In this document: in pieces, positions 20,065 through 53,341 of the stretch | How positions within the stretch are numbered: position 1 is the stretch's first letter | Layout of the letters: each line of letters opens with the position of its first letter | DNA from: Eledone cirrhosa | Lineage: Eukaryota | DNA: 64,000 nucleotides | Assembly (NCBI GenBank): GCA_964016885.1 | Contig: OZ024743.1 | Span: forward strand, 375,658,001 to 375,722,000 | Direction: 5' to 3' | Position numbers and translations under genes: made by a program | The notes under the pieces: model-generated | What the model saw: only the letters and a program-made list of their open reading frames with translations | Databases searched by the model: none | Told to the model about the DNA's origin: nothing

Positions 20065-20156
20065 ATGGAGAGGTATTACCCGGTCCTAAGGGCAGCTGTC
20101 TTAATTACCCTTACGATCATTACTCTTTGTCATGCTTCAGAGATTTCCGAATCAAG
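20065..20156 (+). CDS. Coding exon 1, signal peptide (MERYYPVLRAAVLITLTIITLCHASEISES)
   Basis: Acceptor ttctattgcag ends at 20041; donor ag|gtaa; hydrophobic leader. The frame is open back to the acceptor, so an upstream start cannot be excluded. Confidence 0.75.
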
Positions 20157-25776: not shown

Positions 25777-28700
25777 AAGAGAGAGAGGTTTAGGTATACA
25801 AGAATAGGTATGTTTATAATGCACATATTTCAATACACATTGAATATACATGTATACATGTGTGTGTGAGTGTGTATAATAACTCAAGTAAAACATATTT
25901 GTACCATATTATTCTACAGACGCGCAAAGTTCACAATTCAATAATTGAATAATTACTAAGATTTCAATTTACATGTTTCCTCTATTTGTTTTTATTTCAG
26001 GTCAAAAGTCATACAAAACCTGACCGACGGGTATGACAGTGGTATTTCTCCTCATTTTGATTTGGGTGAGTCTCGGCTGCTTTCTCTTAAAACACGATTG
26101 CTCCCCCACAAAATAATCGTTGACGCTGTTCACCGTCACACACGCACTCTCTATTGACGGTATCTTCGCCCTCCCACATCCTACCTACCCCATCATCATT
26201 CCTCTTTTAACCTCTACCCCTCTCACCTTCCATCTTGACACCAAACATATCCATTGCGCCATCAACCTACGTCACTTCCGATTCTGATACTTCTCGCACG
26301 TCTTTCCTGAATTCCCTCCCCTTTCCTTCAATGATCACCGTAATTAGAGGCCGTCGGTTCCACAGTTTATTCACCCCTGACCACATCAAACCTTTTGGTT
26401 AGGGCGCTGTTGGGCTTACCATCATAATTGTTTCTGATTTAGGCACAATGCCAGCAATTTTGGGGAAGGGGAAAGTCAATTAAATCGACCCCAGTATGTT
26501 ACTGGTACTTTATTTTTATCGATCCCGCATGAATGAAAAGCAAAGCAAACCTCAACTGGATTTGAACTTAAAACGTAAAGGGACGTAACTATATGCCGCG
26601 AAGCATGTTGTCGCTTTACGTTCTAAGTTCAAATCCTGCCGCCGAGATTAGCTTTTCTTTTCATCCATAAGAAGTCATAACTGTTTCTACTTTAGGCACA
26701 AGGCCAGCAATTACCCCAGTGCATTACTGGTACTTTATTCTATTGAGCCCGTAAGGATGAAAGGCAAAGTCAACCTCGGCAGGATTTGAACTCAGATCGT
26801 AAAGGGACGTAACTATGCTGGAAAGCATGGCGTCCGACTCTACCGATACTGCCAATCCACCGCCCTATAATATCGTAGGGTTAGTTTCTAGACCAACCGG
26901 ATTGTTTGTTGTGTTCTTGAGCAAAACACTTCACATCACGTTGTTCCAGTATATTCATCTGAAAATGAATACCAGCAGTAGTTGAGAGTTAACCTTGCGA
27001 GGGACTAATGTCCTGTCCAAGGCGCGGGGAGTATTATATCCACAGTCACTTATCTCTGATGAAACCATGATAAGCATCGGACCTGATTACCCTTTGCTTG
27101 CTTTCTCTCCCGTTCAAGACTCTCAAACATTATGTTCTATAAAAATATAATCATTTGTTTTACATAGATATCGAACTTTGGGCAAATACGGTGAAAGTCT
27201 TGCTTAACAATCACAGCTCCTACAAATATACATAACCTAATTCAAACTAAGACATAACAAAACAAAGTAGAAACTCCCTCGTTGGTTGGGTCACACGAAA
27301 TACATACATATGCTGTTCACATAACTATTGAGGGTTTCCTCAACGTTGTGGTACAACTCTTTGTTGCTAGCTGAATGGACTGGAGCAACGGGAAGTAAAA
27401 TGTCTTGCTAAAGAATCCAATGCGCAACCGGGAATCGAACTCACAACCTTACAATCGTGAGTGTAATACGCTAACCACAAAGCAACACGCCTTCTTATTT
27501 ATTTATAGTGAATAGGCAACAGCACTGAGTTAAACTGGGCCGTCTAATTGGTATGACAATGCATTTGTTAGATACAGGGTTATTTAATAAATAATGCACT
27601 CACATTTATTGATGATTCGAAATGTAATGTGAGGTTTTGTACCTTTATCAAGATGTAACAATGTAACAACAACAACGATAGTTTTTGCCTCGTCCTGAAT
27701 TGAACACTTAGGTTTTATCTCCCCCTGGGCAGAAAAAGTGGAATCATTCTGACAAATTTTGATTCTTTTTGAAATCTCCTCATGGAAATTAATACCCCCT
27801 TCCTCTGTACATGGGAAGAATTAATAGCTTATAGCTATTTGTATTGAATACAAGCCAGGACTCAGCTAAACTGGTAAACCTAATTTCAATAACAGTGCAT
27901 TCATTGCCAAGATAGCTAATTAATTAATTAATAATGCTCACGATGGTTTTATTGGATAATTTTAGCTATAATGGAAGTGTATTTCTATTGAGGTAACAAT
28001 AACATTTTAGCTTCACCGTGAAATAAAACCAAATATAAACAAATCTTTTTATCCTTTCGTAGGCGAAAAATTTGTGATCGGTCTTATAAGTTTCATGCCT
28101 TGTTTGAATCTCATCAGAAAACAAGTACGCCTAACCTCTGTCTATTTCATGATAATTGTTTCTACTTTTGGTACAAGGCCAGCAATTAACCAGTGTATTA
28201 CTGGTACTTTATTTTATCGACCCCCGTAAGGATGAAAGGCAATGTTAACCTCGGCAGGATTTGAACACAGAACGTAAAGGCTCGTAACTCCATGCTGCAA
28301 TGCATGGCATCGGACCCTCTACCGATACTGCCAATAATTGTTTCTACTTTTAGGCACAAGGCCAGCAATTACCCAGTGCATTACTGGTACTTTATTTTAT
28401 CGACCTCGTAAGGATGAAAGGCAAAGTCAACCTCGGCGGGATTTGAACTCAGATCGTAAAGGGACGTAACTATGCTGGAAAGCATGGCGTCCGACTCTCT
28501 ACCGATACTGCCAATAATGGTTTCTGATTTAGGCAGAAGGCCAGCAATTTGGGGGAAAGGGAAAGTCGATTAAATCGACCCCAGTGCATGACTGGTACTT
28601 TATTTTATCGACCCCGTAAGGATGAAAGGCAAAGTCAACTCGGCGGGATTATATAATATCTTTTCTTTCGCCAAATTACAGCAGGTGTTTGTTTATTTAT

Positions 28701-31700
28701 TTCATTTTATTTTCTTAATTTACAGATGTGCCAACAGAAGTTAAAGTTCATATTTATATTAGCAGTTTCGATTCAATTCGGGAATCGGCTATGGTGAGCT
28801 GACTTTCAATTAAATATTTCATTGTTATTTGTTTCTTCTTCTTTCTTTTCTTTTTTTCTCTTTATTTACAACTTGTGGCCCCGTGCCGTAAATAATGATT
28901 TATAATTTAAGCATAAGTTCAACGAGAAACTTGATAATAACAACACCTATACTTTATTGGTACTTTATTTTACTGACGCCAGAATGATGAAAGGCAAACT
29001 TGTCGCTCTTAAGGTGCAATTTTTTTATTTGAAAGTAGTGAGTTTTTCCAACACTGGAAGTCGTGAATGGTATGTGTTTTAAGCTATGTTCTGATCTAAG
29101 CTTGATTGTATTTATTTCTGAACTAGAATGAAGTGTTGAAGTGGGTATGTGTATGTTAGCCACAGGGTGTTGAGTTCTAGCTTGTTGTTGATTTGGAAGT
29201 TGAGTTTAGCTATTAGAACAGATTCTTTGATTCTGAGATTGCCAGTATTTCCATCCATGAATTCGCTAATAGATATTATTTAGTTATTTGTGTTTGAGTG
29301 TATGTGGGCGACAACAGATATCCTGCGCCGAAGTAGTTGCCTCAATTATTCTTTTAAGGAAGAGATTTTATCCCGAAACAGAAAGAGCAATAAAGAACTC
29401 TAAGGTAACATATAGGACCGTACCATTTTTATATTTCTAACATCTAAGACTATACCAGTTTTGTATGTCTATCATCAAGGATATACCATTTTTAGAAAAT
29501 ACTATGTTTTACTAGAAGGCTACAGCAATGCAAATGAGGCATCAAATGTTAAGAATAATTCTAATTAAGATGTTAGAATGTTACTTTGGAGTTGTTTAAT
29601 ATATTTCGGAATAAAATTCCCCCCTCAAAAAAATAATTTAGGAAACTAATTTGGAGAAAGGTATCTTGTGTCGTTCTTATGTTGTCCTGTTTTTTAGTTT
29701 GAAAGTGGTGAACATCTAGGACTATACCATTTTTGGTATTTCTACTATCTAGAACTATACCATTTTTTGTATTTCTACTATCTAGGACTATACCATTTTT
29801 TGTATTTCTACTATCTAGGACTATACCAATTTTGGTATTTCTACTATCTAGGACTATACCATTTTTTTGTATTTCTACTATCTAGGACTATACCATTTTT
29901 GGTATTTCTACTATCTAGGACTATACCATTTTTGGTATTTCTACTATCTAGGACTATACCATTTTTGGTATTTCTACTATCTAGGAATATACTATTTTTT
30001 GTATTTCTACTATCTAGGAATATACTATTTTTTGTATTTCTACTATCTAGGACTATACCATTTTTTGTATTTCTACTATCTAGGACTATACCATTTTTTT
30101 GTATTTCTACTATCTAGGACTATACCATTTTTGGTATTTCTACGATCTAGGAATATACTATTTTTTGTATTTCTACTATCTAGGACTATACCATTTTTTT
30201 GTATTTCTACTATCTAGGACTATACCATTTTTTGTATTTCTACTATCTAGGACTATACCATTTTTGGTATTTCTACTATCTAGGACTATACCATTTTTTG
30301 TATTTCTACTATCTAGGACTATACCAATTTTGGTATTTCTACTATCTAGGACTATACCATTTTTTGTATTTCTACTATCTAGGACTATACAATGAACTTC
30401 ATAATAACGCAGAAATGGACTGATCCCAGATTAAACTACACCGGGACAAGTAATGCAGAGATTCTGGAACTCGACACTCGCATCATGAACTGTATTTGGG
30501 TACCAGATTTATATTTCGCTAATGAGAAAAAAGCATCCTTCCACGAGGTGACAGTACCAAACAAGATGATGCACCTCCATCGGAATGGAACAGTGGTATA
30601 TCGTGCGAGGTAAATTGAATGGGGGACATTGTTGTTGTTGTTGTTATCATCCTCTTGGTCGTTGTCGTCGCATGGTATCTAGAGTGCCGTCATATGCTCG
30701 TGACCCTTTACCAGATTGACAATGCGATAGGCGGCCAGACAACACTTTATTGTTAACTAAAATAATTGTTTCTTCTTTTGGCACAAGTCCAGCAATTACC
30801 CCAGTGCATTACTGGTGCTTTATTTTATCGACCCCGTAAGGATGAAAGGCAAAGTTAACCTCTGCGGCATTTGAACTTTGATCGTAAAGAGCCTTAACTA
30901 TATACTCAAAGCATGGCGTCCACTCCACTCTACCGATTTTGCAAATCCACCGCCCTTATTATTGTTAATTATAATAACTAGCAGAAAAACCACCCTTCGC
31001 GTGGTTTTCTGCTAGCATGTGTAGTGTGTATATTGATATTATACGCAAGTATATATACATGTAGATATGATACATGTGTAGTGTGTATATTGATATTATA
31101 CGCACGTATATATACATGTAGATATAATACATGTGTAGTGTGTATATTGATATTATACGCAAGTATATATACATGTAGATATGATACATCAAATAAAATC
31201 GTAATTGACAATATACACAGAAATTGAACGAAGACTACGTTACACTCTCTTATTTAATCAGTAACGTAATCCACGATACATTAAAAAAAAGGCTATTATA
31301 TATGAACTGCATTAGGAGAAAATTAGTGACAGAAAATTAGTATGTTTATTTAAGCGATCGCCACCGGAAGTGTTGACATTTGAAAATTTTAAAGAAGTGA
31401 ATCTTTAAATATATAATAAAATATATTTAATGAACAGCCACGAAATTTAGTAGATAAATTATGTAATATTCATTCATTATTTATTCAAAGTAATCCAACT
31501 TATTTTACTAATGGGATAAAAAAAATTATAAACCGCACGCAATCCCGCACTCCTTACTTTATTATAGTTTAGATAATAATTACTTTGATATCTCAGTCAT
31601 TGATGTTATTTAACCGGAAAATTTGCCTACCTGCAACCTCAGATATTCATGACGTATCAGAGGGTCCTTGCTGATTTCAGTAGGCATGCCTTCTGGAGTG

Positions 31701-32501
31701 TCCCCCCCCCCAAAAAAAGGGGGGGGGGCTAGACTAATATTTTTTAACCAGCCTTGGAAGCTCTTCGGGATAGTACGTAGTGTCCCTATGATGATGGGGA
31801 CGACCTTGATCTCATGACAATTCCAAATCCTTTCAGTAACCACCTTAGATCCTGGTACCGGTTAATTTTCTCTTTCTCCTTTTCTTGCACTCTTGTGACA
31901 AAGGGGCAAGCTACATTTATAATCAAGCAAGATCTTTATTTCCGACAAAAACCACCAGGTCAGGCCTATTGTGTTCTAATCCTTTGTCTGTTTGTATCCT
32001 GAAATCCCACAGCATCTTCACCCGATCGCTTTCTATCACTGACTCTGGCTTATGCTCCTCATACCATTTCTCAGAATGAGGTAATTTGTACAGTTTGCAA
32101 TAATAATAATAATTGTTTCTTCTTTAGGCACAAGGCCAGCAATTAGAAATGGGGGAAAGTCGATTAAATCGATTCCAATGCATTACTGGTGCTTTATTCG
32201 ATCGACCCCGTAAAGATGAAAGGCAAAGCTAACCTCAGATCGTATAGTTACGCCCCCTTACGATATGAGTTCAAATCCCGCCAAGGTTAACTTTGCCATT
32301 CATCCTTACGGGGTCGATAAAATAAAGTACCAGTCACACACTGGGGTTGATTTAATCGGCTCCCCCCACCCCCCAAAAAGCATTGCTGGCCTTGTGCCTA
32401 AAGTAGAAACAATTATTATTATTATTATCATCAAACTCGGCTATGCTTGCATATGTGCATGTCTATACAAAATAATACATTCTCTCTTTCTTTCTCTTTC
32501 T

Positions 32502-32579
<78 letters not shown>

Positions 32580-35500
32580 CTTTTCCAGGTTGACAATGAC
32601 ATCGGCATGTCCTATGACACTTGAGAAATTCCCACTTGATACACAGATGTGTTCAGTTGTCATTAAAAGTTGTAAGTATTCTCCTCTTCACCACTACAGC
32701 AAGTACTCTCTCTCCTCTTCACCACTACATACAGCAAGTACTCTCTCTCCTCTTCACCACTACATACAGCAAGTACTCTCTCTCCTCTTCACCACTACAT
32801 ACAGGAAGTACTCTCTCTCCTCTTCACCACTACATACAGAAAGTACTCTCTCTCCTCTTCACCACTACATACAGGAAGTACTCTCTCTCCTCTTCACCAC
32901 TACATACAGGAAGTACTCTCTCTCCTCTTCACCACTACATACAGGAAGTACTCTCTCTCCTCTTCACCACTACATACAGCAAGTACTCTCTCTCCTCTTC
33001 AACACTACATACAGGAAGTACTCTCTCTCCTCTTCACCACTACATACAGGAAGTACTCTCTCTCCTCTTCAACACTACATACAGCAAGTACTCTCTCTCC
33101 TCTTCACCACTACATACAGGAAGTACTCTCTCTCCTCTTCACCACTACATACAGGAAGTACTCTCTCTCCTCTTCAACACTACATACAGGAAGTACTCTC
33201 TCTCCTCTTCAACACTACATACAGGAAGTACTCTCTCTCCTCTTCACCACTACATACAGGAAGTACTCTCTCTCCTCTTCAACACTACATACAGGAAGTA
33301 CTCTCTCTCCTCTTCAACACTACATACAGCAAGTACTCTCTCTCCTCTTCACCACTACATACAGGAAGTACTCTCTCTCCTCTTCACCACTACATACAGG
33401 AAGTACTCTCTCTCCTCTTCAACACTACATACAGCAAGTACTCTCTCTCCTCTTCAACACTACATACAGCAAGTACTCTCTCTCCTCTTCACCACTACAT
33501 ACAGGAAGTACTCTCTCTCCTCTTCAACACTACATACAGCAAGTACTCTCTCTCCTCTTCAACACTACATACAGGAAGTACTCTCTCTCCTCTTCAACAC
33601 TACATACAGGAAGTACTCTCTCTCCTCTTCACCACTACATACAGCAAGTACTCTCTCTCCTCTTCACCACTACAGCAAGTACTCTCTCTCCTCTTCACCA
33701 CTACATACAGGAAGTACTCTCTCTCCTCTTCAACACTACATACAGCAAGTACTCTCTCTCCTCTTCAACACTACATACAGGAAGTACTCTCTCTCCTCTT
33801 CAACACTACATACAGAAAGTACTCTCTCTCCTCTTCACCACTACATACAGCAAGTACTCTCTCTCCTCTTCACCACTACATACAGAAAGTACTCTCTCTC
33901 CTCTTCACCACTACATACAGAAAGTACTCTCTCTCCTCTTCACCACTACATACAGAAAGTACTCTCTCTCCTCTTCACCACTACATACAGAAAGTACTCT
34001 CTCTCCTCTTCACCACTACATACAGGAAGTACTCTCTCTCCTCTTCACCACTACATACAGCAAGTACTCTCTCTCCTCTTCACCACTACAGCAAGTACTC
34101 TCTCTCCTCTTCACCACTACATACAGGAAGTACTCTCTCTCCTCTTCACCACTACATACAGGAAGTACTCTCTCTCCTCTTCACCACTACATACAGAAAG
34201 TACTCTCTCTCCTCTTCACCACTACATACAGGAAGTACTCTCTCTCCTCTTCACCACTACATACAGCAAGTACTCTCTCTCCTCTTCAACACTACATACA
34301 GGAAGTACTCTCTCTCCTCTTCACCACTACATACAGGAAGTACTCTCTCTCCTCTTCAACACTACATACAGGAAGTACTCTCTCTCCTCTTCAACACTAC
34401 ATACAGCAAGTACTCTCTCTCCTCTTCACCACTACATACAGCAAGTACTCTCTCTCCTCTTCACCACTACATACAGGAAGTACTCTCTCTCCTCTTCAAC
34501 ACTACATACAGGAAGTACTCTCTCTCCTCTTCACCACTACAGCAAGTACTCTCTCTCCTCTTCACCACTACATACAGGAAGTACTCTCTCTCCTCTTCAA
34601 CACTACATACAGGAAGTACTCTCTCTCCTCTTCACCACTACATACAGCAAGTACTCTCTCTCCTCTTCAACACTACATACAGGAAGTACTCTCTCTCCTC
34701 TTCACCACTACATACAGCAAGTACTCTCTCTCCTCTTCACCACTACAGCAAGTACTCTCTCTCCTCTTCACCACTACATACAGGAAGTACTCTCTCTCTC
34801 CTCTTCAACACTACATACAGGAAGTACTCTCTCTCCTCTTCAACACTACATACAGGAAGTACTCTCTCTCCTCTTCAACACTACATACAGGAAGTACTCT
34901 CTCTCCTCTTCAACACTACATACAGGAAGTACTCTCTCTCCTCTTCAACACTACATACAGGAAGTACTCTCTCTCCTCTTCAACGCTACATACAGGAAGT
35001 ACTCTCTCTCCTCTTCACCACTACATACAGAAAGTACTCTCGGCTCCCAAATGACAGAGGCTGGAATAAGCGGGGGGAGGGTTAGAATAAGCGGGGGGGT
35101 TAGAATAAGCGGGGGTTAGAATAAGCGGGGGTGTAATAAGCGGGGGGGTTAGAATAAGCGGGGGGTTAGAATAAGCGGGCGGTTAGAATAAGCGGGGGGT
35201 TAGAATAAGCGGGGGGTTAGAATAAGCGGGGGTGCAATAAGCGGGGTGGTTAGAATAAGCGGGGGTTAGAATAAGCGGGGGTGCAATAAGCGGGGGGTTA
35301 GAATAAGCGGGGGTTAGAATAAGCGGGGGTTAGAATAAGCGGGGGTGCAATAAGCGGGGAGGTTAGAATAAGCGGGGGTTAGAATAAGCGGGGGGTTAGA
35401 ATAAGCGGGGGTTAGAATAAGCGGGGGGTTAGAATAAGCGGGGGGTTAGAATAAGCGGGGGTTAGAATAAGCGGGGGGTTAGAATAAGCGGGGGGTTAGA

Positions 35501-37066
35501 ATAAGCGGGGGGTTAGAATAAGCGGGGGTTAGAATAAGCGGGGGGTTAGAATAAGCGGGGGTTAGAATAAGCGGGGGTTAGAATAAGCGGGGGTTAGAAT
35601 AAGCGGGGGTTAGAATAAGCGGGGAGGTTAGAATAAGCGGGGGTTAGAATAAGCGGGGGGTTAGAATAAGCGGGGGTTAGAATAAGCGGGGTGGTTAGAA
35701 TAAGCGGGGGTTAGAATAAGCGGGGGGTTAGAATAAGCGGGGGTTAGAATAAGCGGGGGGTTAGAATAAGCGGGGGTTAGAATAAGCGGGGGGTTAGAAT
35801 AAGCGGGGGTTAGAATAAGCGGGGGTTAGAATAAGCGGGGGGTTAGAATAAGCGGGGGGTTAGAATAAGCGGGGGTGCAATAAGCGGGGGGTTAGAATAA
35901 GCGGGGTGTTATAATAAGCGGGGGTTAGAATAAGCGGGGGTTAGAATAAGCGGGGGGTTAGAATAAGCGGGGGTGCAATAAGCGGGGGGTAGAATAAGCG
36001 GGGGTTGTAATAAGCGGGGGGTAGAATAAGCGGGGGTTGTAATAAGCGGGGGGGTTAGAATAAGCGGGGGTTAGAATAAGCGGGGGGTTAGAATAAGCGG
36101 GGGTTAGAATAAGCGGGGGCTAGAATAAGCGGGGGTTGTAATAAGCGGGGGTTAGAATAAGCGGGGGTGCAATAAGCGGGGGTTTAGAATAAGCGGGGGT
36201 TGTAATAAGCGGGGGGGGGTAGAATAAGCGGGGGGGGGTTAGAATAAGCGGGGGTTGTAATAAGCGGGGGGGGGTAGAATAAGCGGGGGTTGTAATAAGC
36301 GGGGGGGGGTTAGAATAAGCGGGGGTTAGAATAAGCGGGGGGTTAGAATAAGCGGGGGGTTAGAATAAGCGGGGGTGCAATAAGCGGGGGGGTTAGAATA
36401 AGCGGGGTTTGTAATAAGCGGGGGGGAGAATAAGCGGGGGTTGTAATAAGCGGGGGGGGGTAGAATAAGCGGGGGTGCAATAAGCGGGGGTTTAGAAGAA
36501 TAAGCGGGGCTTAGAATAAGCGGGGGTTAGAATAAGCGGGGGTTAGAATAAGCGGGGGGTTAGAATAAGCGGGGTGTAGAATAAGCGGGGGGTAGAATAA
36601 GCGGGGGTTGTAATAAGCGGAGGGGGTTAGAATAAGCGGGGGTTAGAATAAGCTGGGGTTGTAATAAGCGGGGGGGGGTAGAATAAGCGGGGGTTAGAAT
36701 AAGCGGGGGTTGTAATAAGCGGGGGGGGGGTAGAATAAGCGGGGGGTTAGAATAAGCGGGGGTGCAATAAGCGGGGAAGTTGGAATAGGCGTGGGGTGGA
36801 AAACCGGTAATCTTTCAAGGTTGTCGCTGTTGATATTTTTGTAAGAACCAGAATTAGTTGTTTAGTTTACATCTTGAGACCTCTAATCCATCCTATTTAT
36901 TTTATAACGTATGGGATTTCTAATAATGTACTTTTTTGTCGTGTATAATGTTTTTTAATGTATAAAGAAAATTAATTGTCACAGAAATGCCTTGCCCGGA
37001 CTTGTGCCTCGGGAAGAAACATTCTAGGTGCAAAACCATGGTCATTGGTGACCGATGGGTGCCTTG

Positions 37067-37113
<47 letters not shown>

Positions 37114-39425
37114 TTTATTCTCACATTCAAATGTGTCATTGTTTACCTTGTTGCAGTTGTTTACACGCCAGATAATGTAGTCTTCCGCTGGGAACAAGGT
37201 AATGCCATTACATACAACAAGGAAATGGAAATGGCCCAGTTCGAAATCGGAGAAATTACAAACGCAGACTGCACCGGACACTTTGAAGGTATGGGTTTAT
37301 TATGCATGTTTGTATGTGTGGTGTGGAGCATGGGGAGCGTGTGTCTTTGTGTACGTGTCTGTGTGTGCATGTGAGCGTGTCTCAATTCTCGCCTTAATCG
37401 GGTTCATACAACACATGCCAGGAGAGCCCATCATCTCCATCGATGGGGAATGAAAGACAGCCCAGCATGTGACCGTGGGGATCCTGACCAGACAGTACTA
37501 CATGTTGTTCGGGATTGCCCCCTCCCCCCTCAGACGTTTTCCCGGCAGCCTTGAAGCACTCCATAATGCTGCAAATGACACTTTGGTCTAGCTCACCTGT
37601 CTTGACTCGCCTTTCTAACTATTGTACATGTCATACGACAAAAAAAAAGAATTCTCGTCTAGATCAACATCGCTTTTCACCCTTCTGGGATGGATGAAAT
37701 AAAGTATCACCTAAATACTGTACTCTATATAATTGACTTCCCACTTTTCCCCAAAACTGCTTGCTTTATGCTAATGATAGAAAGAACTAGACCACCCGTT
37801 ACCCGCTGGGGTCATGTTCACTTAATTTTTTCTTTTAAATCATGTTCACTTAAAATAATTTTTAAATAATTAAATATACAGACATGTATATAATGTAAAA
37901 TGAAATTTCAATCTACTCTCTCACAACCACTATCTCTTTCTCTCTATCGTTCTCTCTATTTATGAAGGTACCCAGAAAAAACCCCGAATCTCGGGACCCG
38001 TGCTCCGATTTACGCGAAACTTGTTTTATTCCATTCGTATTCCCATTTCAGGGGCAACTTCCTTTCAAAGTATGTTCCCCTTATGCGTCGTTTTGGCTGC
38101 ATCAAATTACAGACAAGCGCACAATCACCTAATTTTAGTAGTAGATTATCTTTTTATCTTATTTCTATCTTTTTCTTTCTCTTCAGAAAACAACTTTACC
38201 TGTATCCAAGCCGACATTTTCCTAAATCGGAAATTTGAATTTTTCCTACTCCACGTATTTATCCCTAGCACTTTGATTGTTGTCATTTCTTGGGTATCCT
38301 TTTGGTTACCAATTGATGCTGTTCCCGCCAGAATAGCACTGGGTAGTACAACCGTTCTAACAATGATCACGCAACGTCAAAGTACAGCCATATCTCTTCC
38401 TCCAGTGAGTTACATCAAAGCCATCGATGTGTGGACAGTATCGTGTTTGGTATTCGTGTTCGCGGCATTACTAGAGTACGCTTTGGTCAGCATCTACTCA
38501 AGACGAGAAGTTAAACGGATTATGATAAAACTTGTACCTTCAAAAGAAACAAAGGGAAGTTTTATCAAATCGAAATCAGTGAGTATTTCTTCTTCTCTCT
38601 TTTTTGCCAAAGAGTATGATACAGTAATATCTGCATAAATACTAAGTGTGTGACAGAAACTGCACCAACGTGTATAAATATATACACATTTAATATATAG
38701 CTATGTAAATATACCAGAAATTAAGAATTTTCCTGGAAATTGAAAACATGATAAACATCTTTCATCGATGTTCAGATCTAATGGGACCCTCGTCAGAAGA
38801 CCTATATATCATCCAATGAACCACAACGAAGCATGTATTTGATCGGTATATATACCCATTCACTCTTAGTAGTATTCTGAAATGGACATGTTAATTTGTA
38901 TTACTGCACGTGTTGGTAATTTATATATATATATAATTGTTTCTACTTTTGGCACAAGGCCAGTAATTACCCAGTACATTACTGGTACTTTATTTTATCG
39001 ACCCCGGCGGGATTTGAACTCAGAATAGGAAGGGCCGTAACTCTATGCGTCAAAGCATGACGTCCGACCCTCTCCCGATACTGCCAATCCACCGCCCTTA
39101 TATATAAATGCAATGTATATATAAGCAAGTATTGCAGCAAGAAAAATATAAACATCGATGAGAAGTGAGATTAGGGATTAATTGCTTTAACATATGTTTC
39201 TGTGTCTACCTTCACATACATGTGTGAGTGTGTTGAAGAGGTTCACTTTAAATTCAATATATATAGATAGAATAGATAGCTACTAGAGGCTCATCTAGAT
39301 AAGTAAACCTCTGTGACGAGGTTTCAAATATTGCAGGGTTTTGGTAGATATATATAAGTATATAGGTATATAGTACAACAATATAAAGGCTAAAAAAATT
39401 TAAAGCTCGATATAATTTTATAGGC

Positions 39426-39487
<62 letters not shown>

Positions 39488-42400
39488 AATTTAAAGTTAA
39501 CTTTAAAGTGAACCTATTCAACACACGTCTTTTCTTTTACTATGAAAAATTATCTAAGTTGAGCACATTTTTTAATGTATATAAACTGTGTGTGTGTGTA
39601 ATACATATAGTGAAAGATGGACAACAGATGCCTCAGTGAGGAATCAGACCCTGTATCCCTAGAATGTATATAAAGGATAAATAGTATGTTACAAATGTCC
39701 TTGCGCAAAAAAATATAGAAGTTCTTCATAGAATAATTAAATATATATTGTTACAGTATTGGTAGTTGAATTAATATTTCATGATTTACAGTTGCATATA
39801 CCGAACATCAAATATACATCAGAAATATTTATATGTTACAGAATTAGTGCTTGTAATGTCAACGGATGATTAGGTAGGCCCATAAAGCATATGGAGGGCG
39901 TAGAGTCTTGTTTCTGTAAGGAAATTAATAAATTCTTTAGACGAGATAATCATGATTGGGAATTCTAAAATGTTGTCATATTTTAAAGTGTTTAATCAAT
40001 TGTATTTATATGTTTTCATAATGCTTCTCGGCTTTGTAAATTCACTTTAATCTGATGATCTTTTGTTTTTAAAATACGCTAGAAGGAATTTTCTGAAGTG
40101 TCTAAATGTGTTGAAATTTTCAGACATCATATTTGTGAAGATTTTGTACTAAGAAATTATTTTCAATGCTACAGAAATTACAAGTTATCTCGTGCATGTA
40201 TGGCTTGCATTTTCAACAAGTGCAGACATTTAGAGAAATTCCTTCCGGCAGGAAAACCTCAGGACACGAGAGATTAAGTAGATTTTAAATACCAAGACAC
40301 ATCGTGAAAACAAGCACACAGTTCATATCTTTTAATATTGGAAAAATTTCAGAATTAACAAACTAAAATATCTCGTCGAATTGAATTAAACGACCGACCG
40401 AAAACAAAGAGTTTCACCACCTTACACTATACTATACATGACTGCTAATCAAAAGCCCTTACTAAACTGTATCCTTCAGCATGCGGAGATTCTTCCCTTC
40501 TCTAGTTTTGGTATAGACAAGAAGTTTTATATCATAATAACTGCATATATAGTTATTTGAATATGACAAAGCCGGCCATTAATCGCTCGTATACATGAAA
40601 CAGACTGGCTGATATGCAAATCTGGTTGATCAGTGGGTCTGCTGATATACAGATCTGACTGATCAGGCAGTCTGATAATATACAAGACAGGCCGATCAGT
40701 CACTGTATATTTTAGAAAATATCATATATTTTCACTAGTTCTGACAGTTGGAAGGTAAGCAGTATACTGTAGTGATGAAGGGTTACCCAGAAACATTCGT
40801 GTACATGCCAATACAAGAGCAAGAATGATGGGGGCCATTCTACTGACATGGCTTATAAGAGGCTGTCCATTCTGAGTTCAAATCACGCCGAGGTTAACTT
40901 TGCCTTTCATCCTTACGGGGTCGATAAAATAAAGTACCAGTAATGCACTGGGGTAATTGTTGGCCTTGTGCCAAAAGTAGAAACAATTATTATTAATATC
41001 GAGAAACTTAGATTACATTTATTGCATTCAGCCATGGAGAGCAATACACTATTTGTTTTATATATATACTAGCATTAAAGCCCGGCGTTGCTCGGGGTCA
41101 TTAAGTTACCAAAGTTAGGTTGCAGCACTTTTTTGTCTGCCAGGCACTGGGTGAATGAATTGCAGACCTGGAAGCATGAGCTGCGCCAGCAGTGACAATT
41201 GTAGTTTCGCCTATGGATATTATCTCTGTGCAAAAAAGTGTTGAAATTTATTGTTTCACAGTACTTGCGCAACACGCGAGTAGACGATGCCAGCCGAACA
41301 ACAGAGCTGCGATGGAGTTGTTCTGCATGGTTGTCTGTGTGTTTTCTAAATTTAAGACAGTAGGGAGGGTTGTGATATGAGGGAGAGTTAGCTGTTGTTT
41401 CTAGCAGGTTTAGTGACCTCATAGAGGATATGTGTTTTCTAAATTTAAGACAGTAGGGAGTGGTGTGATATGAGGGAGAGTTAGCTGCTGTTTCTAGCAG
41501 GTTTAGTGACCTCATAGAGGATATGTGTTTTCTAAATTTAAGACAGTAGGGAGTGGTGTGATATGAGGGAGAGTTAGCTGCTGTTTCTAGCAGGTTTAGT
41601 GACCTCATAGAAGATATGTTTTCTAAATTTAAGACAGTAGAGAGGGGTGTGATATGGGGGAGAGTTAGCTGCTGTTTCTAGCAGGTTTAGTGACCTCATA
41701 GAGGATATGTTTTCTAAATTTAAGACAGTAGGGAGGGGTGTGATATGAGGGAGAGTTAGCTGCTGTTTCTAGCAGGTTTAGTGACCTCATAGAAGATATG
41801 TTTTCTAAATTTAAGACAGTAGGGAGGGGTATGATATGGGGGAGAGTTAGCTGCTGTTTCTAGCAGGTTTAGTAACCTCATAGAGGATATGTGTTTTCTA
41901 AATTTAAGACAGTAGGGAGTGGTGTGATATGAGGGAGAGTTAGCTGCTGTTTCTAGCAGGTTTAGTAACCTCATAGAGGATATGTGTTTTCTAAATTTAA
42001 GACAGTAGGGAGTGGTGTGATATGAGGGAGAGTTAGCTGCTGTTTCTAGCAGGTTTAGTGACCTCATAGAGGATATTATTGTTTATCATCTATATATATA
42101 AAACTGACTGCACGCCTAACGAAATTTACAGATACATATATTTTAAATAAACTTATATAATTTTTGCTTTTTTTACGAAATATTTGCTAGTTTTACGTAG
42201 TCTTTAAATAGACTTGTTTTCAAGTAAAAATTATTGTGTTAATGTTATTTTAAACGCTGAGAAAGCCAGCGTAATTTTTTTAATTTTTGCACGCAGACGC
42301 TCAATGTAAACAGAACAAAGGGAAATAACTGATCACTTATGCTCAAAAATCGATACATTATATTCGATTTCGTCAGATAGGGCGGGTCAATTTGAAATAT

Positions 42401-42533
42401 TTTTTTCCGATGTCTTCGCTAGGGCTCAATGTACAAGTATAGCAATTTCGGTGCAATTCCGTGAGAGATTCTAAGAGGAGATGTGTGCCAAAAATCGATA
42501 GACAGACAGACAACCACAGTTTTATATATATAG

Positions 42534-42605
<72 letters not shown>

Positions 42606-42752
42606 GTATACACACATCATAGAAAATTGAAGCTTTCACCGTATTTTTTACTAAAGAAATTTTAGCCTGATAGTGGGGTTTAGAACCCTCTAAGAAATGG
42701 GTTCTATTTTCTATTCAAACTCGCTCACTAGTTTAAAACAAAGTATATATAT

Positions 42753-42831
<79 letters not shown>

Positions 42832-45800
42832 ATAATAATAATAATAATAATAAATGTGAAGACTAAAATCCAAAGAGGGCTCGATAAGGAGGATAAATAT
42901 ATATCAAATATATAAGGGACCCTAGAGCAAATATTTATTAAAATAACAGATTAATGTTTAAGCAAAGAATCGCTGCGTTCACCCTTAACGGGATCTTCTG
43001 AAACTAAAAGAAAAAAGAAAAATAAACCAATCTGTGAGCGCAGAAGTAAATATTCCGAAAAACGTTGCAACCGAAGGAAAACAGGAAGATGATACTTTGG
43101 TTCGTGAAGACGTTCCCTGGCAATGAACGGAAAAAAGCGAAGATAATACGTCGTTATGTGGATCGGTGAGAACAAATACACGCAAATACAAAATCACGTT
43201 TATTGTAAAATAGAGTCGTAAACTAATATTCTATTTCTCGACTTCGGAGTTAAGAATAATGTAAATAAATTAGTAGAACGAAAATGTCATAGGTTATTAA
43301 AATCATAAAAGTAATAATAATTAAATATATACATACACACATCTATATACGTACATACACATGCATACGCGAAAACACCCGCCATACATGCACGTACACA
43401 TAAACACGCGCACACATACATAAACCCGCACGACACATGTACCCGTACACATACGAACGTATACACCAAATACACATAAAAAATATGTGTGTATATAATT
43501 ATATAAACGTATATAAGTAACACATTAATTACGTATATCACGCACACACACACACACACACATACCTACAGGTAAATACGCATATGTTCACCAAACGTAC
43601 GTATACCAAATCTCAATGTATACATATACACACCTTACATACGTGCAAACACGCATACACGCATACACACACAAACACAAAATACACATATACACATAAC
43701 CCTATACACATATACCAGAATATATAATATATACACCTATAACAAATACAAGCATATATACATACGAGAAAGTATACGTACCTCCACAAAACATACAGGT
43801 AAGGTATACTTACCTATACAAATAAGTAACGGTATAAACATGAAATATACTTAGCTACCACATCAAGACGTAAATTATCCGCGTATTGTTCGTACTATCC
43901 GTTAGGGTATAATGTGGGGCTGTAATACAGGAAAGATTTATGCAACTTGTGTTTACAAGCCGAAATTGCCTCAGATTTTTTGTTTAAGATTTGATCATTA
44001 GCGTAGAGTATTTCCAAGGCTTCAGCGGTGCAAAGATCGCATGGTCTTTTATTTCCGTTATACGATCTAGCCCTAGCTAGGATCTCCCAGTGTAACCTAT
44101 ATTGGGTGTGGTTGTCTTTTAGACTCCAGATATAAGCTGAAAGTGACGTCATATTCCTTCTTAAAGGGTTAAGAAAAGAAAGAGTGTGCATGTAAAGACG
44201 CTGCTTGAATCTATTGGCGGTTAACCCTATGTAGACCCTACTAGACGTGGGTGTTTCGACCTTACATTTGTAGACAATGTTACTGGATAGGTAGCAGTCA
44301 ACACGATTCCTACAATTACAGTTAGTACTAGCTACAGGGTTGTACGTGTTCCTACGGCTAAGTAATTTACTAAATTTGAAGTAGTGATATTATGTGCAAA
44401 GTTAGGAGTAAGATATTTTAATGATATTTCTATTAAAAATGTTATTATATTTATGTGCTGAGGCGAAATGCTTCTTAATTAAGGAGAGAAGATCTTAGCT
44501 AATGGTGGGGCCACCTCCATATTATATGGTGGGTTATACCATATAATGCGTCGGGATCTATTTTTCCTAGGTTTATGCTCATACTTAGTATATGCTACCT
44601 TATCGACAATTCCACACCGAGCAAGAGCTTAATTGTAATATGTGGAATGGTCGGTGAAAATATGCTCGTTTGTAGATAGACGGGAAAGCCAGGTTCTTTG
44701 TTATGCTGGCAGGATGGTTAGAATGCTTACTGATGTAATTAAGCGTATCATTCGGCTTTCTATTCGGGTAGTGCAAGCCATTCGACAAATTGAGGGTAAC
44801 GTCGAGGTAGTTTACGACCGAGAGGTTGGTCTCAACATGTTTGGAGAGGTTGAAGCCTTTAAAGAAGGCTGTGAGTTCTTTTCTAAACCTGTCGCAAGCG
44901 CGGGGACCACACTTTGTCATGGTCAAAAGACCGGCATCGTGGTACAAACCACCGCCCACATTAGGTAATTCTTCCCTGATAGAGAAAAGAAGGAAAAGGC
45001 CGATAAGATCTGTAACCTCCGCCGAATCGCTGGTGCCCATACTCACGTCGAATGGGGTACTATTAGATTTTTTTATCCAAATAGAGTCGTCGAAATTAAT
45101 CACCGACTTACGGGCATTGAGGATGACATCAACTTCGAAATCCTTAATCACCGTGAGCGTTTTAGCGAAATTGATAGCTTTAAGAAATGGTAAAGTGATG
45201 GAGGAGTAGTAGTTATTGATGTCGAATTGGATAAAACAGCAATGTTCCTTGTTGTATATGCCATTGAACCAATCAATCACCGCGAAAGAATTATTCCACA
45301 GTGCAAGAGGGGCCAAGCTTCCACTTTCAAGTATAATTCTATCTAAAATCCTTTTACTAAGTCTACCTAAATCAGACTTCGTAGGGTTAATTAGTCGAAT
45401 AGAAGGATTGTTAGCGAAATTGGGTTTGTGATCCTTCAGAGTAAAGTGGGAAGAAATAGGATCCAGAGGTTCAGTCCGGTCCTGGATGTTGAGTTCAGAA
45501 GTGGTTTTAAACCCAGCATCGTTGATGTCATTAATGACACTCCAATTGGTTTTCCGGTAATCCTTAGTTACAGCATTATGTAGCAGTTGATGGTAAGTAC
45601 TTCGTTCCACTTGATATAGATTACCAGTTTTGTAGGAATGGACGTGCACGGCATTAGAATCCATAATAGCACGAATCCTATTCTTCAGGTCCTGATGGAA
45701 GGAATTGCTCCTGTTCCGAAATTTGATACTCCGTATGAGTTCCAAGACATCGTTTTCGAAGGGTAGCAAAGCTGAGCTACTCGGAGGGTTATTATAAGTT

Positions 45801-46258
45801 TTAAACCCAAATTTATCCTGTTTATTGTCCGCTTTTTCCTGGTTATCGAAATAAAAGGCACGCCAACGCAACCTTTTAAGGAACGAATCCGTTTTTTTAT
45901 AACAAGTTTTAGATATGTCTTCCTGCTAGGTACGGGTATGTTCTTTGTAGAAATATTCAGGTGTTGTTTCTGCATGATGAATATAAGTCAATAGAGTGCT
46001 CAACCGAGAGAGCCAAATAGTAATAATAATAAATGTTGCCAATATACCGTATGTTTAATTAAAAACATTTAGAAGACTATTCGCTATCATTTTTAAAGTA
46101 GTGACTATGTCACTTACTTATATTTTCGGCAAAGGCTGGGAGAATGGCTGGCAGCTGTTTCTCGCTGACAGCTGTCAGCCATTCTCCCAGCCTTTGGTAT
46201 ATTGCCAAATATACTATACATACATTCATGTATACATAACTATTTCAGAGCACCAATA

Positions 46259-46350
<92 letters not shown>

Positions 46351-46584
46351 CAAAAGGTAATCAGAAATAACAATAAAATCAGTACAGTATATGGAAGGAA
46401 TATATTAGTTAGAACGCTTGAAATAGCAGGAAGAGGATCTTAACGTTTCCGACGCTAGTCCTTCACCAGAAGAAAGAATGAATATATATATATATATATG
46501 GTCGTTTTGGAAACCTCAACACTTGTTGAGGTTTCCAAAACGACTATTTTTTCTATTCCACAATGCTGCAAGCAAACTTTAACA

Positions 46585-46629
<45 letters not shown>

Positions 46630-46867
46630 AATTGCATTATTTCATGGTTTCATTCGAATCTTTGATTTTCTTTCTCATTTTTATCTTTTTCTTCTCCAGA
46701 TAACATGGAGTAACGGTACCAGCGACGGTGTCCCCGTTGATGTTCGAACATCAGAACCTAAGTCTAAATTAAAAGCCAAACGGATCGATGTTATATCTCG
46801 AGTAGCATTCCCATCGTGCTTTTTCACGTTTGTAACACTCTACTGGGTGTTCTATTCACAAAAGTGA
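20065..46867 (+). CDS. Cys-loop ligand-gated anion channel subunit (glycine receptor / GluCl-like), 8 coding exons, ~408 aa
   Basis: join(20065-20156,26001-26065,28726-28793,30383-30609,32589-32671,37157-37288,38187-38578,46700-46867) = 1227 nt, all GT-AG and phase-consistent. It encodes a signal peptide, WTDPRL, IWVPDLYFANEK, the Cys-loop CPMTLEKFPLDTQMC, a loop-C Cys pair, M1-M4 and the PAR motif. Confidence 0.92.
20695..21119. mobile_element. Fold-back PLE-type element with hammerhead motifs (intron 1)
   Basis: Arms ~20785-20944 and ~20952-21111. Hammerhead tattttat-CTGATGA-stem II-GAAA-TATATATA-ataaaata at 21016-21080. Same family as 55317-55770. Confidence 0.8.
21121..21310 (+). mobile_element. 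tRNA-derived SINE, near full length
   Basis: A-box-like TGGCAGTGTCGG, B-box GAGTTCAAATCC, conserved core and an AT-rich tail. Confidence 0.85.
22690..22984. mobile_element. hAT-type MITE inserted into a SINE
   Basis: Imperfect TIRs CAGGGTCGGATTTA / TAAATCTAACCCTG, with an 8-bp TSD ATAGTACC at 22682-22689 and 22985-22992. Confidence 0.85.
24570..25262 (-). repeat. 103-bp x6 tandem array derived from the terminus of the same hAT MITE family
   Basis: Units start CAGGGTTGGATT at 24570, 24673, 24776, 24879, 24982 and 25085 and match the reverse complement of 22862-22984. The sequence then continues into the MITE body. Confidence 0.9.
25540..25668. ncRNA. Palindrome of two back-to-back minimal hammerhead motifs
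   Basis: + strand: ggctttc-CTGATGA-TTTC(catt)GAAT-GAAAC-AG..CT-GTA-gaagcc (25604-25655). The - strand copy has CTGACGA (25554-25601). Confidence 0.72.
26001..26065 (+). CDS. Coding exon 2 (SKVIQNLTDGYDSGISPHFDL)
   Basis: tttatttcag|g ... ttgg|gtgag; phases 2/1; matches the N-terminal helix and YD..I.P motif. Confidence 0.85.
28154..28650 (-). mobile_element. Three tandem SINE copies
   Basis: Head-to-tail repeats of the main SINE. Confidence 0.85.
28726..28793 (+). CDS. Coding exon 3 (DVPTEVKVHIYISSFDSIRESAM)
   Basis: ttacag| ... atg|gtgag; 68 nt; typical beta1 strand. Confidence 0.9.
29715..30390 (+). repeat. 33-bp minisatellite (~20 units) made from the exon-4 splice acceptor
   Basis: Unit TCTAG|GACTATACCATTTTTTGTATTTCTACTA; the last unit runs into GACTATACAATG (exon 4). 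Confidence 0.95.
30383..30609 (+). CDS. Coding exon 4 (DYTMNFIITQKWTDPRL...IWVPDLYFANEK...GTVVYRA)
   Basis: Loops D, A and E of the Cys-loop ligand-binding domain; ag|gtaaat donor. Confidence 0.95.
30977..31574 (+). mobile_element. Putative Helitron/Helentron-type non-autonomous element with an internal 57-bp x3 repeat
   Basis: Starts ACTAGCAGAAAAACCAC..GTGGTTTTCTGCTAG (hairpin) and ends ...ttattatagtttagat. Layout resembles 37787-38146 and 41068-42535. Confidence 0.5.
31620..32100 (-). mobile_element. R4/Dong-type non-LTR retrotransposon 3' fragment (REL endonuclease), decayed
   Basis: Reads LWDFRIQTD, KEKEKINRYQDL and IWNCHEIKVVPIIIGTL across frames; adjacent to (TAA)n. Confidence 0.75.
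32589..32671 (+). CDS. Coding exon 5, Cys-loop (LTMTSACPMTLEKFPLDTQMCSVVIKS)
   Basis: 83-nt exon, ttccag| ... t|gtaagt, encoding C-x13-C. Confidence 0.96.
32674..35040 (+). repeat. 35-bp minisatellite (~67 units) starting at the exon-5 donor
   Basis: Unit AAGTACTCTCTCTCCTCTTCA(C/A)CACTACATACAG(C/G/A), with occasional 31-bp variants. Confidence 0.95.
35062..36800 (+). repeat. G-rich 16-17-bp minisatellite (TTAGAATAAGCGGGGG), roughly 100 units
   Basis: Read directly; variants include TGCAATAAGC and TTGTAATAAGC. Confidence 0.95.
37157..37288 (+). CDS. Coding exon 6 (FVYTPDNVVFRW...MAQFEI...DCTGHFE)
   Basis: ttgcag| ... g|gtatgg; loop B, loop F and the first loop-C Cys. Confidence 0.93.
37787..38146 (+). 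mobile_element. Putative Helitron/Helentron-type non-autonomous element
   Basis: ACTAGACCACCCG..GGGGT start and ...acagacaagc...ttttagtagtagat end; lies 40 bp upstream of exon 7. Confidence 0.45.
38187..38578 (+). CDS. Coding exon 7 (loop C end, M1, M2, M3, start of the intracellular loop)
   Basis: FTCIQADIFLNR, FIPSTLIVVISWVSFWL, AVPARIALGSTTVLTM, LPPVSYIKAIDVW, VFAALLEYALV; tca|gtgagt donor. Confidence 0.96.
41068..42535 (+). mobile_element. Putative Helitron/Helentron-type non-autonomous element
   Basis: 5' ACTAGCATTAAAGCCCGGCGTTGCTCGGG (a related start is at 50907) and 3' GACAGACAGAC...TTTTATATATATAGAT. Confidence 0.55.
41338..42075. repeat. 91-93-bp x8 tandem array
   Basis: Unit GTTTTCTAAATTTAAGACAGTAGGGAG...GCTGTTTCTAGCAGGTTTAGTGACCTCATAGAGGATATGT. 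Confidence 0.92.
42855..46200 (-). mobile_element. Penelope-like retroelement (Naiad-like), near full ORF with frameshifts, antisense in intron 7
   Basis: RT: FIQFDINNYYSSI, FDVSMGTSDSAEV, GLYHDAGL, VNYLDVTL. GIY-YIG: CNCRNRVDC, IVYKCKV..VYIGLT..FKQR. C-terminal CDLC..E...LNKKSE...CKH. Element boundaries are approximate. Confidence 0.85.
46700..46867 (+). CDS. Coding exon 8 (M4 and stop: KAKRIDVISRVAFPSCFFTFVTLYWVFYSQK*)
   Basis: cttctccag| acceptor in phase 0; ID..SR..FP......YW is the M4 signature. The ORF track missed this exon. Confidence 0.93.
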   Translation: MTWSNGTSDGVPVDVRTSEPKSKLKAKRIDVISRVAFPSCFFTFVTLYWVFYSQK

Positions 46868-47409
46868 GCCGAGAAACAAAGAAATATTTAAACCATATAT
46901 ATATATTTATAAAACTGAGAGAGATAAAGCTGAAGCTAACAATGACTGACATTTTAACACAATTAACCAATAAATATCCAAATGGAGGTAGAACGAGGAA
47001 GGAAAACAAATATAGGACGAACGAAACTATATTGTGCTAACATCTCCGCGTTTCTTTTCTCTCACACACTCTCTCTCTATTTCTCATTCGCCATTTTTAT
47101 TGGCTGTTTTTCAACAAGTGAATCTCTATTTTAAGCAACAGCAGTCATCTTTACAGAACCAAACATTTATGTTAATATTGCTGTGATAATGTTACAGTAC
47201 CTCCCTATTAATATTATTACTATTACTCTTATTTCTTTCAAGATCTTTGATATCTGAAAGGAAATTGGTTTGTTTCATAAAAGGGATTTCACAAACATTG
47301 CAAATTTGATACAAACGGAAACTATTATGAAACAAATGGAGGAGGAACAAATGGTTGGGCTAAAATGTTATCACCAATAAAATACATACACATACTCACA
47401 CACACACAA

Positions 47410-52676: not shown

Positions 52677-52756
52677 TGTATTTATCCTTATCGAGCCTCG
52701 AGAAATAAATACGTTTGTTTAAAATATTATGCTCCATAGCTAGGCTACAATTCTAC

Positions 52757-52895
52757 TGTATGTATGTATGTACATGTGTGTGTGAATAATTTATGTTCAC
52801 ATACATGTGTACACACACACATATGTATATACATATATATATATATATGTGTGTGTGTATGTATATGTATGTATATGTATATATATGTATGTATG

Positions 52896-52972
<77 letters not shown>

Positions 52973-53033
52973 GCATGTATATATATGTATGTATATATAT
53001 GCATGTATATATATGCATGTATATATATGTATG

Positions 53034-53096
<63 letters not shown>

Positions 53097-53112
53097 GTAT
53101 ATATATATATGT

Positions 53113-53174
<62 letters not shown>

Positions 53175-53211
53175 GTATGTATGTATATATATGTATGTAT
53201 ATATGTGTATG

Positions 53212-53298
<87 letters not shown>

Positions 53299-53341
53299 GT
53301 ATGTATGTATATATATGTATGTATATGTATGTATGTATATG

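Follow-up and report, generated by a model that had tools for sequence, protein, structure and literature searches.

Inhibitory channels of the Cys-loop superfamily have been compared by the residues that line their agonist pocket. In the available text of Lynagh et al. 2015 (PMC4338433), an AAA motif consisting of three aromatic residues, a Thr in loop C, an Arg in loop D, and a Ser in loop E is needed for the recognition of glutamate, glycine, and γ-aminobutyric acid (GABA). Mutation of the loop D Arg abolished glutamate gating, a Glu starting loop B suits glycine and GABA, and glutamate-gated chloride channels (GluCl) need an Arg in loop A in lophotrochozoans and in loop G in ecdysozoans (PMC4338433). 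In the accessible part of Blarre et al. (PMC4178172), the R98S mutation abolished the response of GluClAc2, GluClAc1 with Ser at the loop D Arg position responded poorly, and the presence of a benzyl group where GlyR has F63 mattered for single-acid (glycine/GABA-type) agonists. The receptor family is already well known, and orphan lophotrochozoan anionic subunits without the AAA motif were flagged in 2015 as "several new subunit classes" (PMC4338433, available text). We analyzed a stretch of 64,000 nucleotides of Eledone cirrhosa DNA (GenBank assembly GCA_964016885.1, contig OZ024743.1, positions 375,658,001 to 375,722,000 of the forward strand; hereafter the window, with position 1 as its first letter), which contains a gene for one of these molluscan orphan subunits. 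The gene probably encodes a functional subunit of a chloride-type pentameric channel with a re-specified orthosteric site, and its residues indicate that the channel is likely tuned to a signal other than glycine, GABA, or glutamate.

Two further groups of described channels were considered. The pH-gated anionic channels (mite SsCl, annelid Alpo7/Alv-a1-pHCl, and insect pHCl) are anion-selective without a classical agonist, and they were likened to the window gene by description only. Octopus DopC1 and AChRB1 (Courtney et al., 10.1101/2025.04.02.646353) come from the same animal group and the same superfamily, but they belong to the nicotinic-like branch; in the part of that report available to us, the GABA-A-like branch is collapsed in the figure. 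The same part of the report indicates that octopus channels of this superfamily can have unexpected agonists.

Agonist pocket of the encoded protein

The encoded protein has the extracellular ligand-binding domain and the four-helix membrane domain of a Cys-loop receptor. Pfam matched PF02931 (Neur_chan_LBD) to exon 4 alone with an E value of 3.7e-16 and PF02932 (Neur_chan_memb) to exon 7 with an E value of 1.8e-26, which we judge to be far beyond chance. The cytoplasmic end of M2 carries Pro-Ala-Arg, in DAVPARIALG (38324-38332), as in the anion branch of the superfamily; this PAR motif has been tied to selectivity for chloride (10.1101/2025.04.02.646353, available part). When exon 7 was searched against 5.8 billion proteins, the near-identical orthologue P0006 (435 residues, from a 1608-nt contig) was retrieved; it is 96% identical over exon 7, colinear with all eight exons, and alignable to the glycine receptor (GlyR) over residues 54-363 and then over M4. 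When P0006 was compared with all solved structures using phmmer, GlyR alpha3 and alpha1 ranked first (E values of 1.6e-99 and 3e-99), and the next matches were GlyR beta, RDL, GABA-A beta, and GluCl alpha. The GlyR/GluCl-like scaffold proposed in an earlier account of this DNA (hereafter the preliminary description), which was made from the letters alone, was supported by the best solved relatives, and the pore is of the anion type.

The four pocket motifs of that account (NFIITQKW, YRAR, KSFVY, and CTGHFEENNFTC) are present exactly as read, two of them existing only once the transcript is spliced. KSFVY spans the joint of exons 5 and 6 (32665-32671 and 37157-37164), and CTGHFEENNFTC spans that of exons 6 and 7 (37270-37288 and 38187-38203). 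The Cys-loop in exon 5 is C-PMTLEKFPLDTQM-C (C-x13-C). The second disulfide pair, which had been described as kept, is C-TGHFEENNFT-C (C-x10-C) in loop C, encoded by exons 6 and 7, and it is aligned to the GlyR loop C cysteines.

Across loops D, A, E, B, and C, P0006 aligned with GlyR without gaps, and every substitution that had been listed by eye was reproduced. For GlyR we use the residue numbers F63, R65, S129, E157, N203, and T204, which we take to be those of these positions. Loop D is N-F-I-I-T-Q-K-W versus N-I-F-L-R-Q-Q/K-W in GlyR (Phe to Ile and Arg to Thr), and loop E is Y-R-A-R versus Y-S-I-R (Ser to Arg). Loop B is K-S-F-V-Y versus E-S-F-G-Y (Glu to Lys and Gly to Val), and loop C is C-T-G-D/H-F-E-E-N-N-F-T-C versus C-T-K-H-Y-N-T-G-K-F-T-C (Asn-Thr to Glu-Glu). 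The aromatic box is retained, with Tyr/Phe in loop A, Phe in loop B, and Phe/Tyr and Phe in loop C. The window protein agrees with vertebrate GlyR alpha subunits (solved structures such as 9bu2, 7mlu, and 6plr) in the order of its domains, the Cys-loop, the disulfide of loop C, the aromatic box, the PAR motif, and the 6'-Thr and 9'-Leu of M2, but it differs at the loop D Phe/Arg, loop E Ser, loop B Glu/Gly, and loop C Asn-Thr positions, where it carries Ile, Thr, Arg, Lys, Val, and Glu-Glu.

Apart from the aromatic box, the window protein lacks each residue named in the literature for a known agonist. In the AAA motif, the Arg of loop D, the Ser of loop E, and the Thr of loop C are replaced, and the Glu that starts loop B in glycine and GABA receptors (GlyR E157) is Lys. 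Loop A is YFANEK, without the Arg of YFRNEK that marks lophotrochozoan GluCls, and loop G is H-I-Y-I-S-S versus N-I-Y-L-R-S in the nematode rows, without the Arg that marks ecdysozoan GluCls (PMC4338433, available text). Assignments as a canonical glycine receptor and as a lophotrochozoan or ecdysozoan GluCl were rejected on these residues. The nearest characterized branch is that of Aplysia GluClAc1, to which the window protein is about 40% identical. GluClAc1 is likewise an anion channel with two Cys pairs and without the loop D Arg (Ser/Thr); however, GluClAc1-type proteins have Arg in loop A (YFRNEK), Ser in loop E, and Gln in loop B, where the window protein has Ala, Arg, and Lys.

Differences from GlyR extend to M2 and the following linker (38369-38398), in which 15' Ser is replaced by Arg, 19' Arg by Ala, and 24' Lys by Pro. 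In GlyR, positions 19' and 24' are startle-disease sites, whose residues couple binding to gating. These M2 and linker changes, the Glu-Glu of loop C, and the Val of loop B had not been pointed out in the preliminary description. A basic residue at 15' is common to the bivalve and limpet relatives (TTQR/TTQK).

The rewiring of the agonist site that had been proposed thus holds for the polar anchors of loops D, E, B, and C, all of which are replaced in the computed alignment. The further claim that the carboxylate-binding Arg and the amine-binding acid had been lost stands for their original positions; what changes is the balance of the pocket, which now has an Arg on loop E and two Glu on loop C. 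Because loop E gains an Arg beside the lost loop D Arg, and loop C gains two Glu while loop B turns basic, the charges are better seen as relocated than as merely lost, and a ligand bearing both a carboxylate and an amine is therefore still conceivable.

Relocated charges could also be satisfied within the receptor. The loop B Lys and loop C Glu might fill the aromatic box as a tethered mimic of glycine, with the Glu paired to the loop E Arg of the neighboring subunit, so that the channel would be pH-gated, through titration of these groups, or constitutively active. By the alignment and the GlyR binding mode that we assume, these charges lie where the amine and carboxylate of the agonist sit. 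In the accessible text on mite SsCl (PMC13065796), an ionic pair between a β10 Glu and a β6 Arg of the neighboring subunit is present in the open and desensitized states and mutation of the Arg shifts the pH50, and a proton-gated anionic channel, Alpo7, is described from an annelid in the part available of PMC4801368. The comparison would require SsCl R122 and E198 to be equivalent to the window alignment positions, and the arrangement itself would require the Lys and Glu side chains to reach the agonist positions. Relatives from bivalves and gastropods carry an Arg on loop E but neither the Lys nor the Glu-Glu, which speaks against it. We give this self-liganded arrangement a low probability.

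Conservation of the pocket and phylogeny of the clade

The pocket positions were examined in an alignment of 122 rows. Of these, 105 shared 25% identity or more with the window protein, with ten belonging to the cephalopod clade of the window gene and 95 lying outside it. At the loop D Arg position (R65), all ten clade rows have Thr, versus Arg in 74 of the 95 non-clade rows. The loop E Ser position (S129) is Arg in 9/9 clade rows having the exon and Ser in 82/95 non-clade rows. At the start of loop B (E157), Lys was found in 9/9 clade rows having the exon, versus Lys in none and Arg in one of the 95 others. The loop C segment (N203-T204) reads x-E-E-N-x-F-T-C in 10/10 clade rows. Among 143 further representatives of 50%-identity clusters, Lys occurred at the loop B position in two and Arg at the loop E position in none, and the combination of Thr65, Arg129, Lys157, and Glu-Glu was found in 0/143. 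Representatives with the GlyR pocket residues were 45-47% identical to the window protein.

Outside the clade, a basic residue (Arg or Lys) was found on loop E in seven of the 95 rows. All seven are without the loop D Arg and all seven form a sister class in the tree, and the move of the Arg is therefore older than the cephalopod clade. In the wider subfamily, which includes scallop, mussel, limpet, chiton, and cephalopod genes, the loop D Arg is lost and a basic loop E residue is present in 7/8 non-clade members; only the cephalopod clade adds the loop B Lys and the loop C Glu-Glu, which are additions of its own.

This distribution looks like a swap, and it bears on the alternative that a classical amino-acid transmitter (glycine, β-alanine, taurine, GABA, or glutamate) is bound in a shifted pose, in which the carboxylate-binding Arg would be supplied by the neighboring strand β6 (loop E) instead of β2 (loop D) and the amine-binding acid by loop C instead of loop B. 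The intact aromatic box would also suit such a pose, but the seven rows constitute one clade, and the association may reflect a single event. If the agonist lies as we assume for GlyR, the loop B Lys next to its amine should repel the amine, and the loop C Glu in place of the carboxylate-bonding Thr should repel the carboxylate; in addition, the benzyl side chain of the F63 equivalent is lost (Ile). For glutamate-gated channels, the available text of PMC4338433 documents arginines that serve one function from different loops. According to the part of PMC4178172 available, GluClAc1 without the loop D Arg was still weakly glutamate-responsive after long transfection; however, it responded poorly, and glutamate was not stably docked in its model. 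Weighing both sides, we regard the binding of a classical transmitter in a shifted pose as unlikely.

A maximum-likelihood tree of 64 rows was built with a quick IQ-TREE run, with SH-aLRT as the only support measure; vertebrate GlyR, GluClAc2, schistosome GluCls, and the Alvinella receptors were left out. The window gene and P0006 form a pair (SH-aLRT 99), which joins a group of octopod and decapodiform members (SH-aLRT 93), and with the addition of a third group the clade reaches ten rows, all from cephalopods and divided into three paralog groups (SH-aLRT 100). The clade joins a Liolophura (chiton) row and the seven-row R/K129 class of limpet, bivalve, and cephalopod genes (SH-aLRT 92), and the next branch outward is the gastropod GluClAc1 group (SH-aLRT 86). 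Placed outside are the canonical GlyR-like genes of molluscs, genes from annelids and one from a hemichordate, and the ecdysozoan GluCls. The cephalopod clade is thus nested in a mollusc subfamily without the loop D Arg, which is sister to the Aplysia GluClAc1 group. Gastropod genes occur in both branches (Lottia 125242 versus Lottia 111366), and the split of the GluClAc1 and window branches is therefore older than that of the mollusc classes. The lineage-specific origin suggested in the preliminary description agrees with the cephalopod-only clade. Orthology to a characterized glycine or glutamate receptor, which had been named there as the outcome that would overturn the proposal of an orphan-ligand channel, was not found among the tree rows, where the clade stands apart from the GluClAc1 group, from the GlyR-like groups of molluscs, and from the GluCls of ecdysozoans. 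Since cephalopods have separate, canonical GlyR-like genes with the full motif (P0055 and P0056), the window gene is not a GlyR ortholog. Public annotation nevertheless names the clade relatives "glycine receptor subunit alpha-2" or "glycine receptor alpha-2-like".

A search with the P0006 extracellular domain returned 27 proteins, and the named ones above 60% identity were all from cephalopods. Among the best 150 representatives of 1.84 billion clusters at 50% identity, only one exceeded 51% identity, and it is a clade member. Two clade paralogs are present in the same genome as the window gene, with exon-7-like sequences 96-97% identical to Octopus bimaculoides proteins. Over exon 7, paralog L003 (G000 C4) is 97% identical to an O. 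bimaculoides protein; it shares the chromosome-scale contig of the window gene and is located about 0.9 Mb upstream of the window, while paralog L002 (G000 C1) is on another contig.

Invariance of the pocket was counted in the eight full-length clade rows (P0029 and P0123, with parts missing, were left out). The pocket positions were invariant at 15/16, versus 101/205 (49%) of the extracellular-domain columns (hypergeometric P of 1.3e-4). The one varying position is a Phe for Tyr, which is common to the window gene and P0006. Such invariance across the clade favors a functional and specific site over one that has decayed, and the structural subunit that the preliminary description had offered as an alternative is accordingly disfavored.

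A related possibility is an accessory subunit that has no agonist site or channel of its own and would function solely when assembled with other subunits, either the two paralogs or canonical GlyR-like ones. The genome contains all three paralog groups, one paralog group has A-A-R in place of P-A-R in M2, and many invertebrate subunits are silent as homomers, e.g., octopus DopC2 and AChRB2/3 (10.1101/2025.04.02.646353, available part). However, a single protein carries changes on both the principal and the complementary face, and each of the three paralog groups keeps these faces invariant, whereas a non-binding face would be expected to drift. An accessory role is improbable in our estimate.

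We return to a functional chloride-type channel with a re-specified agonist site as the probable explanation. Five subunits, either as a homomer or mixed with the two paralogs of the same pocket, would form a chloride-selective pore. Because both pocket faces have changed identically in all three paralog groups, any interface among the paralogs would carry a complete site. The agonist would bind beneath loop C at the subunit interface, where a cationic group may be held by the aromatic box, which is kept, together with the acids gained in loop C, and the loop E Arg, possibly with the loop B Lys, may hold an anionic or polar group. Closure of loop C would then open the 9'-Leu gate, as in glycine receptors.

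Gene model, transcription, and surrounding sequence

The exon set was derived from stop-to-stop frames and the raw sequence of the window. The gene is intact and comprises eight exons on the plus strand (20065-46867), with an open frame of 408 codons ending in TGA, and all 14 splice sites are canonical (seven GT donors and seven AG acceptors). The interval 30383-38230 that had been assigned to the receptor is real coding region, but it covers only exon 4 to part of exon 7. The hydrophobic stretch encoded by exon 1 is a putative signal peptide. The positions of the features are listed in Table 1.

Table 1. Exons, receptor motifs, and minisatellites of the window (positions counted from its first letter)
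Feature	Position	Strand	Description
Exon 1	20065..20156	+	Start codon (ATG) with a predicted signal peptide, MERYYPVLRAAVLITLTIITLCHASEISES, and 2 nt of the codon that follows; GT donor, frame, weak tblastn match to the P0006 N-terminus
Exon 2	26001..26065	+	Start of the mature extracellular domain, RSKVIQNLTDGYDSGISPHFDL
Exon 3	28726..28793	+	β1 / loop G region, DVPTEVKVHIYISSFDSIRESAM
Intron 3 minisatellite	29714..30390	+	33 bp x 20; enters the first 8 nt of exon 4
Exon 4	30383..30609	+	Loops D, A, and E; Pfam Neur_chan_LBD match
Exon 4 loop D	30395-30418	+	NFIITQKW; Thr at the GlyR R65 position, 30407-30409
Exon 4 loop A	30497-30529	+	WVPDLYFANEK
Exon 4 loop E	30599-30609, completed by 32589	+	YRAR; Arg at the GlyR S129 position, 30602-30604
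Exon 5	32589..32671	+	Cys-loop, then start of loop B; Lys at the GlyR E157 position, 32665-32667
Exon 5 Cys-loop cysteines	32608-32610 and 32650-32652	+	13 residues between
Intron 5 minisatellites	32680..36797	+	35 bp x 68 (32680-35041), then 16/33 bp x about 52-103 (35079-36797); most of the 4.5-kb intron
Exon 6	37157..37288	+	Rest of loop B (F-V-Y), loop F, β9, first half of loop C (Cys 37270-37272, ...GHFE); the matches of contigs from three related organisms begin at 37157 and continue directly into exon 7
Exon 7	38187..38578	+	Second half of loop C (E-N-N-F-T-C; second Cys 38201-38203), M1, M2, M3, start of the intracellular loop
M1	about 38240-38308	+	Within exon 7
M2 with PAR motif	38324-38383	+	Within exon 7
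Exon 8	46700..46867	+	Rest of the short intracellular loop, M4, TGA stop; M4 aligns to GlyR M4; joined to exon 7 in the contigs of relatives

The mature protein differs from P0006 at 32 of 377 residues, of which only two are in M1-M3. Directly before loop C, five of ten residues (residues 211-220; 37252-37281) differ from P0006, and the contigs of two relatives lose alignment near 37251-37253; the sequences point to a fast-evolving patch adjoining the pocket. For transcription, contigs of four public runs were compared with 37100-46900. Single contigs from three related organisms (X1 record 1 of 2104 nt, X5 record 15 of 2148 nt, and X9 records 21/22) cover exons 6, 7, and 8 with both introns skipped. 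Because these intron-skipping contigs match the modelled exon boundaries, with the match beginning at 37157 and ending at 38578, the orthologues are transcribed and spliced in related species.

Decay of the gene in Eledone cirrhosa, i.e., a young pseudogene, was also considered. It could account for the Arg-to-Gly change in the YDxR motif, which is one departure from an invariant clade column, and for the minisatellite-swollen introns, including 20 decoy copies of the exon 4 acceptor. The open 408-codon frame and the canonical splice sites argue against decay, as do the two differences from P0006 in M1-M3 and the Phe for Tyr of the pocket, which P0006 also carries. A pseudogene is thus highly improbable.

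Several points weigh against a functional channel with a new agonist. One complementary-face Arg together with the principal-face acids could bind a classical amino acid in a shifted pose, and pocket positions are conserved in most such families, so that their invariance is partly structural and not a matter of ligand choice. Run X19, from the window's own organism, covers the introns and looks like DNA, no RNA run of that organism was among those listed for exon 7, and colinearity with P0006 is the sole support for the joints of exons 1-5. The codon at 26041-26043 (exon 2) is Gly, where GlyR and the seven other full-length clade members have the Arg of YDxR; this is the sole departure of the Eledone cirrhosa gene from an otherwise invariant clade column, and it could hint at relaxed constraint in this species. 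Our literature search found no measured current, ligand, or tissue for any clade member. It also found no paper on the cephalopod clade, its charge-swapped pocket, or its function; the octopus screen of 41 channels with 18 ligands may include a member, judging from the part of the report available (10.1101/2025.04.02.646353), and such a member would bear directly on the orphan status claimed here. On the residues compared above, the gene is a credible orphan chloride-channel subunit.

Two introns are enlarged by minisatellites. Each unit of the intron 3 array repeats the acceptor and the first eight bases of exon 4 (TCTAG followed by GACTATAC), and this string has 22 matches in the window versus 0.17 expected, the last match being the real site. 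Since each unit ends in TAG in the exon 4 frame, use of a decoy acceptor would truncate the protein. An 869-residue frame across 32476-35085 was rejected as coding, as it is minisatellite read-through running on from exon 5.

Elsewhere in the window, Pfam searches of five long open frames yielded only two sub-threshold endonuclease matches, both for one frame. This 471-residue frame (169-1895, minus strand) matched the endonuclease of endonuclease-reverse-transcriptase elements and probably represents what is left of a LINE. Three other frames, of 441, 164, and 211 residues, at 43895-45925 (minus strand) and 14696-15331 (plus strand), two of which are antisense in intron 7, had no Pfam match and are possibly remnants of mobile elements. 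The interval 52700-57100 contains about 4 kb of TA/CA-rich simple sequence, with GC down to 0.18 and long, meaningless open frames on both strands.

Implications for cephalopod signaling

The name "glycine receptor subunit alpha-2" carried by the relatives predicts a pharmacology that the pocket does not support, and it should be read as an annotation warning. If the self-liganded arrangement were true, the members of the clade would be chloride channels that need no agonist and respond to pH or to any other factor that releases the Lys-Glu-Arg lock, and the clade would show a way in which a transmitter receptor can evolve into a sensor.

The large brains of cephalopods arose independently of the vertebrate ones, and deorphanization of cephalopod fast transmitter receptors is only now under way. 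The clade of the window gene can be viewed as a natural experiment in the re-specification of an agonist pocket, in which the aromatic cage was kept and the polar anchors were swapped or moved and then frozen across octopods and decapodiforms. Whether an agonist is found or agonist-independence is shown, either outcome would test whether the charges of a binding site can migrate between loops without loss of function, and either would add an inhibitory signaling channel to cephalopod neurobiology.

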